Below are positions 1-6,006 of a stretch of 50,368 nt of DNA, one piece after another. The translations under genes and the position numbers were made by a program. The stretch lies in contig CAZHLU010000001.1 in the NCBI GenBank assembly GCA_964533435.1, positions 1 to 50,368 of the forward strand, given 5' to 3'. The notes beneath the pieces are model-generated. The model was not told where the DNA came from, ran no database searches, and worked only from the letters and a program-made list of their open reading frames with translations. Source of the DNA: an uncultured Gammaproteobacteria bacterium (GTDB lineage Bacteria > Patescibacteriota > Patescibacteriia > UBA1558 > GWA2-36-10). Positions within the stretch are counted from its first letter, which is position 1; every line of letters starts with the position of its first letter.

Positions 1-55
1 CCGGTTAATATTTTGTTTTTAGGCATGTTTGTTATTTAGTATTTTTATTTATTTC

Positions 56-188
56 ACCTAACAGATGAGCGTATGTGAAGATGCTTTCGCGGTGACCGTG
101 ATGTAATTTTAACATCACGGGTACAAGAAGGCAATTTACAGAAAACCAGTTCTTTTAAGATGGTTTTCTCGCATGCGTGGTGTTGCGT
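56..188. repeat. attC-like imperfect palindrome A
   Basis: Outer boxes ACCTAAC (56-62) and GTTGCGT (182-188) fit RYYYAAC/GTTRRRY. After a short unpaired spacer there is an 8-bp inner stem 70-77/170-177 with two G-T wobbles on the + strand. Internal hairpins at 95-104/112-122 and 141-148/161-168. Shares the left motif TAACAG-N3-5-AGCGTAT and right motif GGTGTTG with the other copies. Confidence 0.6.
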
Positions 189-226
189 GATGTTGTGCTT
201 CCCCTTACTTTAGGGGATTTTTGGTA

Positions 227-255
227 TTGACAAAATAGTTAAAATATGATATTAT
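227..255 (+). promoter_or_regulatory. sigma70-type promoter of G+C-rich module 1
   Basis: TTGACA (227-232), 17-nt spacer, TATTAT (250-255), TG at 247-248. AAAGGA SD-like element before the ATG at 301. Confidence 0.6.
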
Positions 256-300
256 CATATTGCCATAATGGTGTGGCGAGTACACTGAAAGGATTGGGCC

Positions 301-792
301 ATGTTGTGCATAGGACTATTCGGCACTTGCGGCAAGAGCAAGTGGCGCGCTCCCTTCATACAGCGTTACCAGTCGGAAGACATCGCCTTCTTCAACCCCC
401 AGGTCGATGACTGGAAGCCCGAATGTGCCGTCAAGGAGGCCAAGCACCTCGCCAACGACACGGTGATTCTCTTCCCCATCACCAGCGAGACCTACGCTAC
501 GGGTTCCCTGGCCGAGACTGGTTTCAGCATCCTCAATGCGATCCGTCTGGACGATCGGCGCGACTTCGTCATCCTGATCGAGCAGAATCTTGACGAAGAA
601 CTGGTCGACGAGACGGCGCGCAAGGAGAGTCTCCGGGCTCGCGCACTGGTCAAGGAGCATCTCAAGAAGCTCCGTCTGTCCAACCTATACGTCGTCGAGT
701 GCCTCGAGGAGATGCTCGAGGTCAGTATCACGCTCTACCGAGCGGCCGAGATGCGCGAACCGTTGCGCAAGTTCAATCCGCACGCCGAGTAG
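301..792 (+). CDS. nucleoside 2-deoxyribosyltransferase-like protein (G+C-rich cassette ORF)
   Basis: 163-aa ORF. IGLFGTCGKSKW...FNPQ...D...LFPI...TGSLAETGFS pattern resembles the Nuc_deoxyrib_tr / Nuc_deoxyri_tr2 fold families (from memory). G+C clearly above the flanks. Has its own promoter and terminator. Confidence 0.6.
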   Translation: MLCIGLFGTCGKSKWRAPFIQRYQSEDIAFFNPQVDDWKPECAVKEAKHLANDTVILFPITSETYATGSLAETGFSILNAIRLDDRRDFVILIEQNLDEELVDETARKESLRARALVKEHLKKLRLSNLYVVECLEEMLEVSITLYRAAEMREPLRKFNPHAE

Positions 793-828
793 TCGGCGCC
801 AGACCTGAGCAAGTCTCAAGAACTGCTT

Positions 829-862
829 GCCCGCCGCATCACGCGACGGGCTTTTCTTTTTT
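829..862 (+). terminator. rho-independent terminator of module 1
   Basis: GCCCG-c-CGC / GCG-a-CGGGC stem (829-851) followed by a T-run (852-862). The loop carries CATCACGCGAC, complementary to 182-192. Confidence 0.6.
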
Positions 863-932
863 CTCAAAAAATTACAAAACAAAAAACAATTTCTAAAAGA
901 TTGTTTATTTAATGAATAGAAAATTCGATTTT

Positions 933-1006
933 ATATAACAGCCCAGCGTATCTGAAATCCCGGGCGACCATTAACTTAATAGGCGAGGGATTTGGGCAAG
1001 CGGACT
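933..1006. repeat. attC-like element B (short/truncated copy)
   Basis: Left end ATATAACAGCCCAGCGTATCTGAAATCCC is near-identical to the left end of element D. 7-bp stem 955-961/987-993. No GGTGTTG right end. Confidence 0.45.
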
Positions 1007-1009
1007 AAA

Positions 1010-1339
1010 TTATTTTAATACAATGATAGAGATTCTCCTAATAATTGTCACTGCTGCACCCCAAGCCATTGGCGCCCATAATGGTAATCCAAAAAATGTT
1101 GGATTGGTATATTGCCAAGCGCCTTGGTATATCGTCAAGCTCTCTCCTATTGGTCCAAGTATAAAAGCAGTAAAATAATAGGACACATCTTCTTTATCGT
1201 GCCATTTTAAAAATATAAGAACTGTGATTACTATAAAAGCTATTGTTAACCAAGTATTATTATGGTAAAGGTAGGTGATAGCCACTACACAAACTGCAAA
1301 TAGTATAACTGCTAATAATAATTCTTTTATTTTATTCAT
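1010..1339 (-). CDS. small integral membrane protein, unknown function
   Basis: 109-aa ORF with 3-4 hydrophobic helices and AT-rich native-like composition. No family recognised. Confidence 0.55.
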   Translation of the reverse strand: MNKIKELLLAVILFAVCVVAITYLYHNNTWLTIAFIVITVLIFLKWHDKEDVSYYFTAFILGPIGESLTIYQGAWQYTNPTFFGLPLWAPMAWGAAVTIIRRISIIVLK

Positions 1340-1424
1340 AACTGTATTATGGAATATTTTTATTTATTCCGGACCTGTCCGCCTTTGGCGTAAACCAAAT
1401 ACGCGGTGCGAGATGTTTATAAAA

Positions 1425-1712
1425 TTATTGTTTAATTGGCTCGCACCATCCGAAGGAACTTGCGCACTCCAGGCCATTTCCTTGAAATCCATCGGGGCAG
1501 CCATCATCAGGAATAAGTTTATAGTTTCCTCGTTTCATTCTTTCTACTGAGTTTATACAACAGTCGGTCTTTTTTTCACATTGATCAGCTAATTTTTGAT
1601 AGTAATCAATAGTGATTAATTTTGCATCTTGATTATTTGAGTTAAAATAGGCGATTAATCCTATTAGTAGAATAACTGTAATTATTCCAGTTGTTAATTT
1701 TATTTTTTTCAT
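1425..1712 (-). CDS. small secreted/anchored Cys-rich protein
   Basis: 95-aa ORF. N-terminal hydrophobic signal/anchor (KLTTGIITVILLIGLIAYF) and 7 Cys in the C-terminal half. Confidence 0.5.
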   Translation of the reverse strand: MKKIKLTTGIITVILLIGLIAYFNSNNQDAKLITIDYYQKLADQCEKKTDCCINSVERMKRGNYKLIPDDGCPDGFQGNGLECASSFGWCEPIKQ

Positions 1713-1741
1713 ATGGTATTTTAATAGTTTTAATAAATTTT

Positions 1742-1950
1742 GTCTAACAGGCCAGCGTATGCTACGTTACGAGCGAGCTTTGCGGTAAAATATTTGCGGA
1801 GCAAACCGCAAAGGCGAACGAGTAATGTAGGTCTTAGCTTACACCTATCATAGGTTAAAATTAAAAGTGTCTAAGCTAATTTAAGCACTTTTAACTATAA
1901 ATTTCAAATGTAGCATTGGTGTAAGCTAAGTCGCATACGCGGTGTTGTGG
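1742..1950. repeat. attC-like imperfect palindrome C
   Basis: GTCTAAC (1742-1748) / GTTGTGG (1944-1950). Perfect 8-bp inner stem GCGTATGC/GCATACGC (1755-1762/1933-1940). Internal hairpins at 1778-1785/1806-1813 and a 15-bp stem at 1831-1845/1918-1932. Confidence 0.6.
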
Positions 1951-1968
1951 GATGTTTTGGCTTATTAC

Positions 1969-1997
1969 TTGACAAATATCTTATTATATATTATATT
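1969..1997 (+). promoter_or_regulatory. sigma70-type promoter of G+C-rich module 2
   Basis: TTGACA (1969-1974), 17 nt, TATATT (1992-1997). AAGGAGG lies 6 nt before the ATG at 2040. Confidence 0.6.
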
Positions 1998-2039
1998 AGC
2001 GATGGCAATACCGCCAAAAACTCTTTAAGGAGGTAGCCA

Positions 2040-2225
2040 ATGCTAATAGTCTTTTATGTGAAGTTTTCCGACATCGATCGCCTGCGAAAAGGTGAGGCGG
2101 TCCCTGCGATGGAAAGTCAAACAAACGATTTCTATCGCATAGAGGCCGAAGTCGAAGAAGTGAAGATCTACCAAGATCCCAACGTCAGCTCGCGTCGGTT
2201 GGTGAAGAAGCTCCATCAACGCTAG
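2040..2225 (+). CDS. hypothetical 61-aa protein (G+C-rich cassette ORF)
   Basis: ORF directly preceded by a strong SD (AAGGAGG) and a consensus promoter, and followed by a hairpin terminator. No family recognised. Confidence 0.5.
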   Translation: MLIVFYVKFSDIDRLRKGEAVPAMESQTNDFYRIEAEVEEVKIYQDPNVSSRRLVKKLHQR

Positions 2226-2264
2226 TCCGACGAGTGCGGTCGCTGACTGACAGCTCCCCACAAC

Positions 2265-2311
2265 ACCGCCTTATCGAAAGCCGCACGGCTTCGGTCGGGC
2301 GGTTTTCATTT
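2265..2311 (+). terminator. hairpin terminator of module 2 (possibly also a mini attC-like site)
   Basis: ACCGCC...GGCGGT long hairpin (2265-2303) followed by TTTTCATTTT. Immediately preceded by CCCACAACACCG (2257-2268). Confidence 0.5.
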
Positions 2312-2332
2312 TATATGCCTGCCCAAACCAAA

Positions 2333-2468
2333 ATTTAACAGGACAGCGTATCTGAAGTTCCGAAGCGAGTGGCGTGGTAAAATTGCGCGGCTTGCCAGCC
2401 GTAACTTTAGCGAAGGTTGGAGCGCACCACGCAAACGAGCGAGGGATGTAGAGGAGTGAGCGTTAAAG
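2333..2468. repeat. attC-like element D (left end plus conserved internal hairpin)
   Basis: ATTTAAC (2333-2339), then AGGACAGCGTATCTG. Stem 2372-2378/2426-2432 flanked by AGCGAG / GGTAAAAT / AACGAG...GATGTAG blocks shared with element C. TTTAAC/GTTAAA (2334-2339/2462-2467) are complementary. Confidence 0.55.
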
Positions 2469-2486
2469 AATAAAATTATTTAAAAA

Positions 2487-2990
2487 TTAAAGTTTTTTTA
2501 TTCTTTTTAATATAAACCAAGAAAAATGATTGCCATATCTTTGATGTAATGTTTTTAATTTCCAGTCATTACCAGTTATTATTTTTCTACAATATTTACT
2601 GCCACACTCACATTTTAGCTTATAGGGGTAAGTAGTGATAGTGGCATAATCAACAGTAATTTCCTCACCCTTTTTAATATTTTTTAATGCCACAAAAGTT
2701 ATTTCTCCATCTGGTCCAGCGTTTGGTTGGCAAGAGTGGTTAAAACTAACAACTAAGTTTTTGATTTCATCTTTTCTTATTGGCGCAAGAAAGAATTTAT
2801 CAGAAATTTGTACCTCAAAATCTCCGACTTCTTTGTGACAACGCATTGCTTCTTTAAAATTTACAATATGCCCCATTTTTATAAAGACCACCTCACCTTT
2901 TTTAATATTAGTTTTAGCAAATAATCCTTTTCCGCCGATTTTGCTTGTTTTAACTATTGTCTTTGGTGAGCGGTAACATTTAATTTTCAT
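2487..2990 (-). CDS. SET-domain protein (putative lysine methyltransferase)
   Basis: 167 aa. Has FNHSCQPN, EEITVDY and a post-SET CxCxxxxC (CECGSKYC), the classic SET signatures. Confidence 0.8.
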   Translation of the reverse strand: MKIKCYRSPKTIVKTSKIGGKGLFAKTNIKKGEVVFIKMGHIVNFKEAMRCHKEVGDFEVQISDKFFLAPIRKDEIKNLVVSFNHSCQPNAGPDGEITFVALKNIKKGEEITVDYATITTYPYKLKCECGSKYCRKIITGNDWKLKTLHQRYGNHFSWFILKRIKKL

Positions 2991-3014
2991 ATATTTTTAA
3001 ATAATTTTATTCTA

Positions 3015-3055
3015 GCTCGCTCCTCGGATATCCGGTGTTGGGCGAAACGTGGGTT
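3015..3055. repeat. attC-like right end (GGATATCC-GGT-GTTGGGC) plus left arm of the module 3 inverted repeat
   Basis: GCTCGCTCCTC (3015-3025) is inverted relative to GAGGAGTGAGC (2451-2461). GATATCC (3027-3033) can pair with GCGTATC (2346-2352). GTTGGGC (3037-3043) fits GTTRRRY. Positions 3035-3055 are complementary to 3428-3448. Confidence 0.5.
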
Positions 3056-3094
3056 AAATTTTTTATTTTATTAAAATATTAGTTTTTATAGTTA

Positions 3095-3123
3095 TTGACA
3101 GGTATTGTTATGTGTTGTATTAT
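3095..3123 (+). promoter_or_regulatory. sigma70-type promoter of G+C-rich module 3
   Basis: TTGACA (3095-3100), 17 nt, TATTAT (3118-3123). AAGGAGG precedes the ATG at 3154. Confidence 0.6.
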
Positions 3124-3153
3124 ATCTAGTTCCCCAAAAGGAGGTGTGTCAGC

Positions 3154-3351
3154 ATGTCACTGAAACGTCAGTTCATTCGAGGTCAGGTTGTGGTTTTCCT
3201 TCTCAGTCTGCTCGTGTGGTATCTCTTTACTCCGAGGCCGATCTTTTCAACACAAGGGGTGACGATTTTTGTGGTCAGTCTCGCAATTCTGGAGGCGATG
3301 TTTCTCATTCTGCGGGCTGATGAGCAGAGGTCAAGGACACAACCCAAATAG
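3154..3351 (+). CDS. small two-TM membrane protein (G+C-rich cassette ORF)
   Basis: 65 aa with two hydrophobic helices (VVVFLLSLLVWYLF, VTIFVVSLAILEAMFLIL) and a charged tail. Strong SD, own promoter and terminator. Confidence 0.55.
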   Translation: MSLKRQFIRGQVVVFLLSLLVWYLFTPRPIFSTQGVTIFVVSLAILEAMFLILRADEQRSRTQPK

Positions 3352-3376
3352 CATCTTCACGATGCACGATTCTCTG

Positions 3377-3415
3377 AAGGCGGTGCTGGTTAGTTCCAGT
3401 GTCGCCTTTTCTATT
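3377..3415 (+). terminator. rho-independent terminator of module 3
   Basis: AAGGCGGTGCTGG / CCAGTGTCGCCTT stem (3377-3408) followed by TTTTCTATTT. Confidence 0.6.
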
Positions 3416-3439
3416 TGTTTAAAAATGAACCCACGTTTC

Positions 3440-3493
3440 GCCTAACACTGTGTTGACGCACCTGTTGACATCATAGCCAAAATTAGCTAAAAA
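3440..3493. promoter_or_regulatory. candidate attI-like junction and recombinase promoter
   Basis: GCCTAAC (3440-3446; GTTAGGC on the minus strand), then two direct TGTTGAC repeats (3451-3457, 3463-3469). The second repeat overlaps TTGACA (3465-3470), followed by 17 nt and TAAAAA (3488-3493), upstream of the ATG at 3524. Confidence 0.4.
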
Positions 3494-3523
3494 GTAAATA
3501 ATAAACATTAATCACAAACTATT

Positions 3524-4390
3524 ATGAAAAGCGATTTTAAGGCCTTAAGAAAGCCTCAGTTTTTGGTCAATAACCATCCTTTAGACAGTCTAGCTCAAGA
3601 GCTTATAATTAGGGGATTTTCTCGGCGGACTATCCAGAGCTATTTATCTCACAATCAGCGATTTTTGGACTTTAGTGGCAAATCAGCCAGAGCCGTCGAT
3701 AGTCAGGATGTCAAAAATTATTTGCTTTATCTTAAGAGTCAAAATTATACCAACACCTCTCTCAATCAAGTTATTTCAGCTCTTAAGTTTTATTACGGAC
3801 AGATTCTAAAAAGGAAGCTGTTTTTTAGTATTCGGCGGCCTAAGAAAGAAAAGTTTTTACCAACTATTTTGACAAAATCTGAAATTATAAAAATAATAAA
3901 TTGTTCACATAACCTAAAACACAAATTACTTTTGTCTTTAATGTATGGTTCGGGCCTAAGAGTGTCAGAAGTGATTAAAATAAAAATAAATCATTTGGAT
4001 TTAGGTTCTAAAAGCTTATTAGTCAAAGATGCTAAAGGGCAAAAAGATCGTTTTACTTTATTAAGTGCTATTAGTATCAAATTATTAAATCTTTATTTAC
4101 CAAAATTGTCGAGTGAGCAAAAATATTTATTTTCTGGGCAAAATGGTATGTCTCATCTTAGTCAACGTAGCGCACAAAAAATATTTGAAATTGCTTTGCA
4201 AGAATCAAGTATAAAAAAAGATGCTACCTGCCATAGTTTGCGCCATAGTTTTGCTACTCACTTATTGGAGAGTGGAGTTGATATTCGTTATATCCAAAAA
4301 TTATTAGGCCACCAAAATATCAAAACTACAGAAATTTATACGCATGTAGCTAGAAGTTTTTTTAATAATATCAAAAGCCCACTAGACTAA
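3524..4390 (+). CDS. tyrosine recombinase, IntI/Xer-related (integron-integrase-like but without the IntI-specific insertion)
   Basis: 288 aa. Catalytic signature GLRVSE, KGQKDR, HSLRHSFATHLL, LLGHQN, EIYTHV. ALKFYYGQIL and the C-terminal IKSPLD resemble IntI1 ALLFFYGKVL and VRSPLD (from memory). The segment between DRFTLL and KYLF is short. Confidence 0.85.
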   Translation: MKSDFKALRKPQFLVNNHPLDSLAQELIIRGFSRRTIQSYLSHNQRFLDFSGKSARAVDSQDVKNYLLYLKSQNYTNTSLNQVISALKFYYGQILKRKLFFSIRRPKKEKFLPTILTKSEIIKIINCSHNLKHKLLLSLMYGSGLRVSEVIKIKINHLDLGSKSLLVKDAKGQKDRFTLLSAISIKLLNLYLPKLSSEQKYLFSGQNGMSHLSQRSAQKIFEIALQESSIKKDATCHSLRHSFATHLLESGVDIRYIQKLLGHQNIKTTEIYTHVARSFFNNIKSPLD

Positions 4391-4403
4391 AAAACAGTCC
4401 TTT

Positions 4404-4805
4404 TTAGGACTGTTTTTTAATTAATTTTTTTAAATTTTCTTTTACCCTATATTTTACTATTTTTTTGATTAAGCTTAGGGGCAGTTTTTTGTCCAAAGGA
4501 AATTGGACAGCGCCTTTACTAGTTTTGTATTTAGTTAGTTCTTTTTTAAAGGCCTTGATACCACTAGGAGTAGGGTAAAAGCCAATGTGATTTTTGTAAG
4601 CAGCAAAATGAACTAAATTACCATTTAAATAAAAAGTCGGCATTTGGTAACTAATTTTTTCTTGCGCTTGAGGGGCTGATTTTTTGATCGCCAGTCGTAA
4701 CTCAATTAATTTTGCTTGAGTATCTTTGGGAAATAATTTTAGATATTGATTTATAGTTTTGAGTTCAGTTTTTTGCACAGTAATAATTTTATTTAATCTT
4801 AGCAA
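4404..4805 (-). CDS. DUF1801 (YdhG-like) domain protein
   Basis: 133 aa. ISYQMPTFYLNGNLVHFAAYKNHIGFYP matches the DUF1801 pattern (from memory). Confidence 0.6.
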   Translation of the reverse strand: MLRLNKIITVQKTELKTINQYLKLFPKDTQAKLIELRLAIKKSAPQAQEKISYQMPTFYLNGNLVHFAAYKNHIGFYPTPSGIKAFKKELTKYKTSKGAVQFPLDKKLPLSLIKKIVKYRVKENLKKLIKKQS

Positions 4806-6006
4806 ATTTTCTTTTACCAGCTTGAATTACATCACCTGATTTTAGATTTAAATCTTGATCCCAATTCTCTACCTTGATTTGATTAAGTTTTAAGCCACCG
4901 CCTTCAATTAAACGGCGAGCTTCGGATTTGGAGTTTACTAATTTTATTTCCATTAACAAATCAACGGGATTAATTTTATTTTTGCTAATCGTAAACTCCG
5001 GCATATCGTCTGGATTTTCTTTTTTAGCAAAGACTTTGTCAAAATTTTCTTGGGCTAATTTTGCGTCTTTTTCAGAGTGGTACATTTTGACAATTTCATA
5101 AGCCAAGCGAACTTTTAGGTCGCGGGGATTGGTGCCAGCTTTCATTTGGGCTTCTAAGTCTTTTATTTCGGCTAGACTTAAATAAGTGCAGTCAATAAAG
5201 CATTGAATAATAGCTTCATCTGGTAAAGCCATAGTTTTACCAAACATATCAGTAGGATTTTCATCTAAACCAATACCAGTACCCAAACTTTTGCTCATTA
5301 ATTTTTCGCCAGTTACGGGATTTTCCAAGAGAGTAGTAGTGACCACAATCTTCTCACGATTTTGGTAAATTTTGGCTAAAGTACGACCAGCTAACATGTT
5401 AAAAGTTTGGTCAGTGCCACCAATTTCAACATCAGCTTTTAAAGCAACCGAGTCATAGCCTTGCATTAGTGGATAAAAAAATTCATGAACATATAAAGGT
5501 TTTTGTTCTTTTAGTCTTTTTTCAAAATTATCACGCTCTAACATTCTTTGGACAGTAAAGTGCGAAGCTAAATCAACCAAGTCAGCAAAATTTAATTTTT
5601 TTAGCCACTGGGAATTAAATTTAAATTCAATTGGATTTTTTTTGTCAGAAAAATTTAAAATTTTGCCAATTTGTTTTTTAAAATGTTTTAGATTTTCTTG
5701 TACTTGTTTTTCACTTAAACGTTGTCGAGCTGAGTTTTTGTCACTAGGATCGCCAATCATAGCAGTAAAATCGCCTATTAAAACAATGATTTTATGTCCT
5801 AAATCGTGCAGTCTTTTTAGGATAATATAGTTGGTAGCATGTCCCAAGTGAGCATAAGTAGCCGTAGGGTCAATACCCATATAAATTCGAAGTTGTTTAC
5901 CAGAATTTAAAAGTTTTTCCAAGGACTCTTTATTTGGATAAATGGTATCAATTGACCTAGTTAACAATTCTTGAATTTTGGCTTGATCTGTGTTAATTTT
6001 AGACAT
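4789..6006 (-). CDS. tyrS: tyrosine--tRNA ligase
   Basis: 405 aa. HLGH (HIGH motif), KLMSKSLG (KMSKS motif) and a C-terminal S4-like domain. Confidence 0.9.
   Translation of the reverse strand: MSKINTDQAKIQELLTRSIDTIYPNKESLEKLLNSGKQLRIYMGIDPTATYAHLGHATNYIILKRLHDLGHKIIVLIGDFTAMIGDPSDKNSARQRLSEKQVQENLKHFKKQIGKILNFSDKKNPIEFKFNSQWLKKLNFADLVDLASHFTVQRMLERDNFEKRLKEQKPLYVHEFFYPLMQGYDSVALKADVEIGGTDQTFNMLAGRTLAKIYQNREKIVVTTTLLENPVTGEKLMSKSLGTGIGLDENPTDMFGKTMALPDEAIIQCFIDCTYLSLAEIKDLEAQMKAGTNPRDLKVRLAYEIVKMYHSEKDAKLAQENFDKVFAKKENPDDMPEFTISKNKINPVDLLMEIKLVNSKSEARRLIEGGGLKLNQIKVENWDQDLNLKSGDVIQAGKRKFAKIK

Follow-up and report, generated by a model that had tools for sequence, protein, structure and literature searches.

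In the canonical integron, the attI site is laid out as an L-like box, 3 nt, an R box, and then the first cassette, while attC sites are about 57 to 141 nt long and have extrahelical L-box bases and a near-symmetric unpaired spacer. The I2 helix of the integrase IntI is held to be the innovation that turned an Xer-like ancestor into an integron integrase. I2 was reported to be necessary for cassette capture and to occur in no other protein, and intermediates are not known (Escudero et al. 2020, PMC7790495). In every archaeal integron reported in 2022, the IntI domain is present (PMC9668308), and a "Cand" subgroup of Xer-related recombinases in candidate phyla was assumed to substitute for Xer (Smyshlyaev et al. 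2021). Here, we describe a tyrosine recombinase gene and an adjoining array of small gene modules bounded by attC-like sites, which lie in positions 1 to 4390 of a 50,368-nt stretch (the window; contig CAZHLU010000001.1, forward strand) of a low-GC (about 34%) Patescibacteria chromosome.

We think it probable, from comparison of sequences, that the locus is a chromosomal integron-like gene-cassette platform of Patescibacteria and that it is run by an Xer-type enzyme. An earlier note on this DNA had proposed either an integron run by an Xer-like enzyme or a distinct cassette system, and the comparisons below support that proposal. We file the locus as a system that would work like an integron yet is not a member of the IntI family. 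A full-text literature search found no account of Patescibacteria in which cassette arrays or attC-like sites adjoin insertion-less recombinases, and no description of cassette arrays beside XerA or "Cand" proteins was found in the searchable literature. Relatives were sampled by eleven look-ups and from 21 metagenome loci around homologous recombinases, and L-numbers (L001, L002, L004, L087, L110, etc.) denote the related recombinase loci used for comparison. A profile search of genome contigs with the recombinase alignment supplied IntI and non-IntI controls, the relatives among the matches listed being at most 45% identical; these entered the comparison of recombinases and not that of arrays.

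A recombinase of apparent Xer type without the I2 insertion

3524 to 4390, + strand: tyrosine recombinase of 288 amino acids (aa), XerA/"Cand" type without the IntI I2 insertion (PF13495 and PF00589).

The earlier note took the 288-aa open reading frame (ORF) for a tyrosine recombinase with a full signature, and both domain matches and the complete R-K-H-R-H-Y set bear this out. R146, K171/K174, H237, R240, H263, and Y272 are invariant across 24 homologs, and the catalytic residues align to the XerA and IntI4 structures. The NCBIfam model NF040815 (recomb_XerA_Arch) gave 227 bits, above its cutoff of 220, versus 186 to 189 bits for the XerC/D models, and the integron-integrase model TIGR02249 gave 210 bits in two stretches, below its cutoff of 265. 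With the same models, two true IntI controls scored 482 and 408 bits in a single stretch each, and five insertion-less relatives scored like the window recombinase.

That the IntI insertion is missing, as the earlier note had it, was evident from structure and alignment alike. The top match in the PDB was P. abyssi XerA (4a8e), which is collinear with the recombinase and has no insertion. The match to VchIntIA (IntI4, 2a3v) was split, with query residues 26 to 181 on chain residues 12 to 170 and query residues 210 to 287 on chain residues 240 to 317; between the two pieces (query 181 to 210), the recombinase has 29 residues versus 70, an extra of about 41 in IntI4. In a 113-protein alignment, the stretch from 176 to 215 holds 40 residues in the window clade versus 79 to 86 in 25 true IntIs. 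Moreover, a neighbor-joining tree (distance based only) set the IntIs apart as a separate clade and placed the window recombinase nearest to insertion-less Patescibacteria proteins. Segments once read as IntI-like (ALKFYY, HSLRHSFATHLL, and the C-terminal SPLD) are also found in insertion-less XerA-like relatives of other phyla, and because they are common to the whole XerA/IntI-like group, they are no evidence of IntI affinity. We conclude on sequence grounds that the recombinase is intact and of Xer type, outside the IntI family. No second homolog of it was found within the 50-kb window.

Homologs with 60 to 93% identity to the recombinase are common in Patescibacteria. We note that in four insertion-less relatives from outside Patescibacteria (L006, L007, L009, and L098), the frame runs on upstream of 10001 into an N-terminal extension with a W-x-I-P-like motif, which the Patescibacteria recombinases lack. 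In L092 (321 to 491) and L094 (205 to 375), about 140 nt extra lie between the leader ATG and the aligned recombinase start, a stretch that may represent an extended N terminus or an inserted element.

Alternating half-sites face the recombinase gene

The array is built of two kinds of half-site, a 5' half-site (A) and a 3' half-site (B). The interval from A to B is the hairpin, or inner slot, and the interval from B to A is the outer slot. In what follows, a slash within G/TT or AA/C marks the crossover position.

51 to 80, + strand: 5' half-site A1 (ATTTC-ACCTAAC-AGATG-AGCGTATG; nhmmer E = 1.8e-9).
169 to 190, + strand: 3' half-site B1 (CGCATGCG-TGG-TGTTGCGT; repeat search).
928 to 961, + strand: 5' half-site A2 (E = 1.2e-8).
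1394 to 1416, + strand: 3' half-site B2, degenerate (AAATACGCGG-TGCGAG; E = 0.023).
1737 to 1766, + strand: 5' half-site A3 (E = 2.2e-9).
1931 to 1952, + strand: 3' half-site B3 (E = 3.3e-6).
2327 to 2360, + strand: 5' half-site A4 (E = 1.3e-8).
3024 to 3045, + strand: 3' half-site B4 (TCGGATATCC-GG-TGTTGGGC; same arm in L004, L107, and L110).
3436 to 3462, - strand: attI-like site, with L-like box GCGTCAACA, CAG, R box TG/TTAGGC, and then the first cassette (conserved in relatives).
3463 to 3523, no strand assigned: conserved leader with TTGACA (3465 to 3470); block CACCTRTTGACA-N17-TAAAAAGTAAATA in all relatives.

A follows the pattern ATTTC-RYY-TAACAG-NNN-AGCGTATCTG, with copies that begin at 51, 928, 1737, and 2327, and B follows CAGATACGC-GG-TGTTGGGC-GATGT, with copies at 169, 1394 (degenerate), 1931, and 3024. 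The two are mutual inverted copies, lie on the + strand only, and alternate strictly as A, B, A, B (four of each). Matches to TAACAGNNCAGCGTAT numbered four, all on the + strand and all within 1 to 2400, where 0.34 was expected and 0 of 100 shuffles did as well, and TCGCATRCGYGGTGTTG matched three times versus 0.10 expected. The rest of the window (46 kb) has no A or B repeat.

Read on the minus strand, the boxes GTTAGGC (3446-3440), GTTAAAT (2339-2333), GTTAGAC (1748-1742), GTTATAT (939-933), and GTTAGGT (62-56) and the partner boxes GCCCAAC (3043-3037), CCACAAC (1950-1944), and ACGCAAC (188-182) lie exactly where the earlier note placed them; one degenerate 3' half-site (about 1394 to 1416) had been missed. 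Its claim that the sites resemble attC holds for the R boxes, which fit RYYYAAC and GTTRRRY, but not for the rest of the site, which is noncanonical: half of the hairpins have a gene in the loop, the stems run past the R boxes, and the L arm has no extrahelical base. The overall geometry is canonical, with the recombinase divergent from the cassettes, the attI-like site adjoining its gene, and the apparent crossover at G/TT on the minus strand. The array also runs beyond the left edge of the window, which is crossed by a minus-strand ORF that starts at 26. A further 5' half-site considered at 2431 was dismissed, the stretch being part of a conserved side hairpin also present in L004.

The attI-like site is conserved on its recombinase side and variable on its cassette side (13 loci), and its palindrome is only 5+1+5 (AACAC-T-GTGTT). 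After the final A-type box, 13 loci have TGTGTTTGYGCACCTRTTGACA-N17-TAAAAAGTAAATA and then the start codon, with a box-to-start-codon spacing of 80 to 82 nt (9 loci). The leader from 3463 to 3523 probably holds the recombinase promoter. On its minus strand (3498 to 3470), TTTACT-17-TATGAT matches at 9 of 12 positions and makes a weak outward promoter-like site that may act as a promoter.

Covariation of partner arms

Twenty-five partner pairs, each an A with the B that follows it, were trimmed and then aligned. In these, the R helix (AACA with TGTT) is near-invariant. The L helix, of 9 bp, is unbulged, with double changes at seven of nine positions and almost no unpaired cells; examples of its pairs are GCGTATCTG with CAGATACGC, GGATATCCGA with TCGGATATCC, CCATATGCG with CGCATATGG, and GGATTGCCGA with TCGGCAATCC. 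In the covariation test, 8 of 12 L-helix pairs had changed on both sides. The L helix covariation score was 0.32 versus 0.17 after shuffling (equaled in 0 of 500 shuffles), and it fell to 0.08 or less with the partner slid. Moreover, complementarity was higher for partner than for nonpartner arms in 5000 of 5000 permutations. The R-L spacer is 5 nt on the A side and 2 to 3 nt on the B side; in the class 1 aadB attC, used as a control, the spacers are 5 and 6 nt and the L'' box is one base longer than L'.

On the + strand, G.T pairs exceeded A.C mismatches by 27 to 5 in the R/L cores and by 35 to 8 in the outer stems, and base composition alone predicts an excess of about 1.5-fold. The asymmetry points to selection for folding of one strand, and the folding strand is, judging by sequence, most likely the + strand (the bottom strand in integron terms). 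GC skew was positive downstream in all seven loci checked, which suggests that the + strand is the lagging-strand template.

The hairpin sites are 122 to 1187 nt long, and an ORF is present in 15 of the 25 loops. A minus-strand ORF occupies 13 of the A-to-B intervals and a plus-strand ORF 2, the other 10 being empty (122 to 200 nt), and the 22 B-to-A intervals divide into 13 with a minus-strand ORF, 5 with a plus-strand ORF, and 4 empty. Folding recovered ORF-containing long hairpins (z = -3.7 for the hairpin of a 109-aa gene in L110, and z = -2.8). Stems specific to the ORF adjoin the enclosed genes (GCGGACTAAAT with ATTTAGTCCGC for the 109-aa gene; about 38 nt for a SET gene), and outer intervals are likewise closed by inverted repeats, which extend 20 to 30 nt past the R box. 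A scan of 1 to 4500 against Rfam, which has no attC family, gave only a chance snoRNA match. A covariance model of the 25 trimmed hairpins was too insensitive to count for or against attC identity: it touched canonical attCs via the R boxes only (E = 0.4 to 8) and missed its own full-length sites, the loops of which exceed its search window.

Crossover position and cassette sharing

A 170-nt ORF-less unit, consisting of a short hairpin and 90 nt more, is present in two copies in L004 and in one in L087. All three agree exactly as far as ...CACTTATCAG (TTATCAG/), beyond which they run into two different L boxes or, for the L087 copy, into attI. The variable R-box bases, namely those at position 2 (either T or A) and at the RRY positions, lead to the same place. 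At B-site R-box positions 2, 5, 6, and 7, pairing with the next A site was 0.88, 0.83, 0.88, and 0.79, while pairing with the hairpin partner was only 0.59, 0.68, 0.55, and 0.45. Classically, the first TTRRRY of a cassette goes with the R'' of that same cassette. Because the variable bases follow this signature, exchange would fall between G and TT, and comparative evidence thus places the crossover at G/TT on the minus strand (AA/C on the + strand).

Arrays differ between related genomes by whole modules, where an invariant region had been named in the earlier note as telling against a cassette system. The gene for a 109-aa membrane protein (1010 to 1339) and its arms recur in L110 and L004 at 87 to 91% DNA identity, and the neighbors on both sides differ each time. 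L110 shares downstream tyrS, PBP1A, uvrB, truB, and rpsT with the window; the genes of its 8-kb array are otherwise unlike those of the window array, and the array ends at housekeeping genes. The first cassette is common to L004, L089, L088, and L001, and L087 has another at the same junction. Near-identical arms also flank unrelated inner genes (GrpB, a 183-aa ORF, a UbiE-type methyltransferase, and SET), the shared portions being an A arm of about 130 nt at 88 to 95% identity and the B arm TTCTAGCTCGC.CCTCGGATATCCGG. Crossover at 3' half-sites only and inversions between sites were each worked through on paper as sources of the loop genes and dismissed, as neither gives the observed order.

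Cassettes of the window

2339 to 3445, - strand: cassette 1, ending at G/TT; outer slot with a promoter and a 65-aa membrane ORF (3154 to 3351, + strand); hairpin 2333 to 3045 with a SET-domain gene (2487 to 2990, - strand; PF00856 at 3e-16) within the loop.
1748 to 2338, - strand: cassette 2; outer slot with a promoter and a 61-aa ORF (2040 to 2225, + strand); attC-like hairpin 1742 to 1952 empty.
939 to 1747, - strand: cassette 3; outer slot with a 95-aa ORF (1425 to 1712, - strand); hairpin 933 to 1416, its 3' half degenerate, with the 109-aa membrane ORF (1010 to 1339, - strand) in the loop.
62 to 938, - strand: cassette 4; outer slot with a promoter and a nucleoside 2-deoxyribosyltransferase-like gene (301 to 792, + strand, 59% GC; PF15891 at 5.6e-7); attC-like hairpin 56 to 190 empty.
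1 to 61, - strand: start of cassette 5; ORF from the ATG at 26 continues past the window edge.

Cassette 1 contains inverted repeats of 28 nt (3035-3062 with 3421-3448) and of 30 to 38 nt (2449-2487 with 2993-3030), and its folding retains the ORF-closing stem around the SET gene. The empty hairpin of cassette 2 has a folding z-score of -5.7 on either strand. The three + strand genes of the window each have a sigma-70 promoter with an 11/12 match (3095 to 3123 in cassette 1, 1969 to 1997 in cassette 2, and 227 to 255 in cassette 4) and a strong ribosome-binding site, and their GC content is above that of the host. A terminator lies at 3376 to 3409 in cassette 1, and the terminator-side end of cassette 4 is shared with unrelated cassettes of L002 and L091. 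A foreign high-GC origin of the ORF at 301 to 792 was considered and dismissed: homologs 70 to 99% identical occur throughout Patescibacteria, where the gene stands alone with its own promoter and no sites, its GC always above that of the host.

Two observations concern cassette content. Outer-slot + strand cassettes (window 170 to 960, L002 8070 to 8830, L091 60 to 860, and L110 5555 to 6455) are 70 to 77% identical at the promoter-side end and 86 to 96% identical at the terminator-side end, and the ORFs between these shared ends are unrelated, as though genes were exchanged within a fixed expression frame. The SET-domain gene, of the eukaryote-type lysine methyltransferase fold, is a cassette both in the window (2487 to 2990) and in the Nomurabacteria array of L108 (543 to 1064), where it lies inside a 527-nt perfect tandem duplication that also takes in a 2'-5' RNA ligase gene.

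Conservation across Patescibacteria

More than 15 Patescibacteria contigs have an equivalent array ahead of a homologous recombinase. In the window and nine nonredundant related arrays, the A and B profiles match only on the upstream side, only on the + strand, and in alternation. The downstream neighbor of the recombinase is a housekeeping gene that differs among lineages, and upstream, on the opposite strand, lie small genes that are for the most part unannotated or accessory. The cargo (GNAT, glyoxalase, pyrophosphatase, HAD, methyltransferases, SET, 2'-5' RNA ligase, and restriction-modification genes) is typical of accessory genes. Distant relatives with 40 to 48% identity (Peribacteria, Gracilibacteria, and others) retain the upstream ATTTC-RYYYAAC box. 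Insertion-less relatives outside Patescibacteria (L006, L007, and L013) have no comparable upstream arrays and have a different N-terminal extension, and we therefore confine the claim to Patescibacteria.

In most assemblies, contigs stop 60 to 650 nt upstream of the recombinase start yet run for kilobases downstream (e.g., L001, L005, L008, L012, L017, L087, and L093 to L096), as expected if arrays vary within populations. This pattern of contig ends could serve as an assembly signature in a search for further arrays of this kind.

Several relatives have additional features around the recombinase. A diversity-generating retroelement (bAvd plus reverse transcriptase) lies between the array and attI/recombinase in L004 (5968 to 7300; also L086), L108 (8455 to 9839), and L109 (1647 to 3031). 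In L004, a target-like repeat pair (5407-5532 and 5817-5941) stands beside it; the window has no such retroelement, and the idea that its reverse transcriptase is the inner gene of L089 was dismissed. The interval from the 3' end of the recombinase to tyrS is variable among syntenic genomes, with only a DUF1801 gene in the window (4391 to 4805) and Methyltransf_21 plus other small ORFs in L001 (1021 to 2949) and L110 (10887 to 12228). In L092, a B-type half-site (2614 to 2649) follows the recombinase. Finally, four direct repeats of about 300 to 400 nt, 1.5 to 2.3 kb apart, lie upstream of an insertion-less relative (39% identity) in L015 (2480 to 8880; Oceanirhabdus, Clostridia) and may be another type of array.

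How the array might work, and what else it might be

We propose that the XerA/"Cand"-type recombinase, without the I2 helix, would recombine an attI-like site about 81 nt before its start codon with the attC-like ends of cassettes. Each attC-like site is an imperfect inverted repeat with an R box (RYYYAAC and G/TTRRRY), an asymmetric unpaired spacer, and a 9-bp L helix that would be read by shape rather than by sequence. The substrate would be single-stranded DNA (ssDNA), the folded strand being the + strand and thus the lagging-strand template, and one strand exchange would be followed by replicative resolution. Cassettes would leave as circles and enter at attI, as they do in integrons, and the shared and duplicated units and the differences between arrays are indirect evidence of this. 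In contrast to integrons, both arcs of a cassette carry genes. In the outer slot, between sites, + strand genes come with a promoter and terminator of their own, and in the inner slot, which is the hairpin loop, genes are almost always co-oriented with the array; extra stems specific to the ORF close each loop. The anatomy, conservation, and covariation of the sites, the position of the crossover, the sharing of cassettes, and the polymorphism of arrays are observed, and catalysis by this recombinase, a folded ssDNA substrate, a single strand exchange with replicative resolution, and the mode of cassette expression are inferred.

Several points weigh against this proposal. The I2 domain, which has been reported to be required for cassette capture by IntI1 (Escudero et al. 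2020, PMC7790495), is absent here, as is an extrahelical base in the L helix. Loops of 0.4 to 1.2 kb make single-strand folding demanding. Some breakpoints of similarity fall also at arm/ORF boundaries, and the 109-aa module has been reassorted on both sides; G/TT crossover alone accounts for neither. Nor does it produce the homogeneity of arms on both flanks; homologous exchange between arms, reactivity of both strands adding crossovers at B, and some unknown cassette-building step are possible sources. Finally, the recombinase may also, or solely, be the Xer of the cell.

The last point, taken by itself, makes a different account, in which a housekeeping Xer lies beside its dif site and the array is a pile-up of modules that exploit it by double-stranded Xer recombination, like integrative mobile elements exploiting Xer (IMEX) or Acinetobacter pdif modules. 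In single-Xer systems (XerS and XerH), dif adjoins the xer gene, as it would here. The enzyme scores above the XerA equivalog cutoff and is the only homolog in the window, the sites alternate in orientation and, like those of pdif modules, bracket every ORF with inverted copies, the 109-aa module assorts independently on its two sides, and the "Cand" subgroup is thought to stand in for Xer (Smyshlyaev et al. 2021). The junctions, however, are not those of dif: none has a two-armed core of about 28 bp, and the arms come from covarying half-sites 0.1 to 1.2 kb apart. The G.T over A.C asymmetry argues for folded single strands, and dimer resolution would be put at risk by dozens of dif copies in direct repeat. 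No terminus switch is seen in the GC skew, which is positive to either side of the L110 locus (the far-side sample being only 1.7 kb) and downstream in the seven loci. The earlier note had named a recombinase that clusters with housekeeping XerC/D, with a dif site elsewhere, as telling against an integron. In this weak sample no dif-like terminus position was seen, though a dif elsewhere is possible, and the XerC/D scores stay below that for XerA, the type to which NCBIfam assigns the enzyme. Unlikely as a full account, the Xer and dif explanation is nevertheless a serious alternative that may be partly true, and a dual-role enzyme serving both as Xer and in cassette recombination, which would combine the two, is possible.

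Two other explanations would leave the recombinase a bystander. The array could be a cluster of attC sites without an integrase (CALIN) that is served in trans by a true IntI from elsewhere in the genome or from other organisms; CALINs are common in bacteria and archaea (PMC9668308), and the R boxes fit the integron consensus. We regard this as very improbable given that all of the loci examined keep the adjacency, the orientation, and the 80-to-82-nt spacing to a conserved attI-like site even as the downstream genes differ, that the distant Patescibacteria relatives keep the ATTTC-RYYYAAC box, and that the sites are without the extrahelical L-box base that IntI reads. Ordinary intergenic repeats unlinked to the recombinase (REP-like elements, terminators, or miniature inverted-repeat transposable elements) are harder still to credit. 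Hairpins between genes are common and two short sites of the window have unremarkable folding z-scores, but the repeats do not occur in the other 46 kb of the window, their strand and order are fixed, their variable R-box bases obey the cassette rule, and units common to several arrays end at the R box.

If an integron-like platform is accepted, a wider reading can be put forward, though only tentatively. A widespread Patescibacteria system of integron type without I2 could be either a surviving pre-I2 stage or an independent invention, in which an Xer-like enzyme, possibly the sole Xer, acts on folded ssDNA sites. Folding of the lagging-strand template would give a row of hairpins that abut one another, with one gene per loop and with the bases of the hairpins meeting exactly at the cleavage positions AA/C and G/TT, and these naturally competent, host-dependent bacteria might capture single-stranded uptake DNA directly.

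The claim that I2 is necessary becomes directly testable with a natural cassette platform that has integron-type sites and lacks I2. Such a platform offers either the missing intermediate or a convergent solution and bears in both cases on the origin of integrons. It would also give a concrete mechanism of gene flux to Patescibacteria, in which small genomes are reliant on accessory genes that have been acquired. A whole class of arrays will escape any integron survey that searches by the IntI C-terminal profile and for attCs no longer than 200 nt, and such arrays fragment metagenome assemblies.

Comparison with known systems

The recombinase is closest to archaeal XerA and "Cand" proteins, as it passes NF040815, has 4a8e as its top PDB match, and has a collinear fold without the insertion. 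XerA, however, acts on dif for chromosome resolution. Single-strand integration by Xer of IMEX of the CTX phage type, as outlined in PMC3442271, would be similar in that an insertion-less Xer-type enzyme acts on an ssDNA hairpin with an imperfect center and on a duplex chromosomal site. Unlike those elements, the array has no phage genes, consists of many small tandem cassettes with integron-type R boxes, and has its site adjoining the recombinase gene rather than at a terminus dif. The pdif modules of Acinetobacter plasmids, in the outline given by PMC7399989, are similarly modules of one or a few genes that are flanked by oppositely oriented sites and reassorted between replicons. A pdif site, however, is a complete 28-bp duplex XerC/XerD core, whereas each junction here is half of a split hairpin site with covarying arms, and the array is chromosomal and anchored to a recombinase gene.

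Compared with integrons, the enzyme is without I2 and outside the IntI clade, the L helix is unbulged, and the spacers are 5 versus 2 to 3 nt. The sites are 122 to about 1190 nt long and their loops can contain genes, their stems run past the R boxes, and outer genes also lie within inverted repeats. As in integrons, however, the recombinase is divergent from a one-directional array, and its attI adjoins the gene with an L-like box, 3 nt, and G/TTRRRY. Cassette ends are RYYYAAC...GTTRRRY, the L region is kept as structure and not as sequence, and the first TTRRRY of a cassette matches the R'' of that cassette. Some cassettes are ORF-less, some have their own promoter, and the cargo is accessory. 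Finally, the site arms are homogeneous around unrelated genes, much as attCs are species specific, and here they are so on both flanks.

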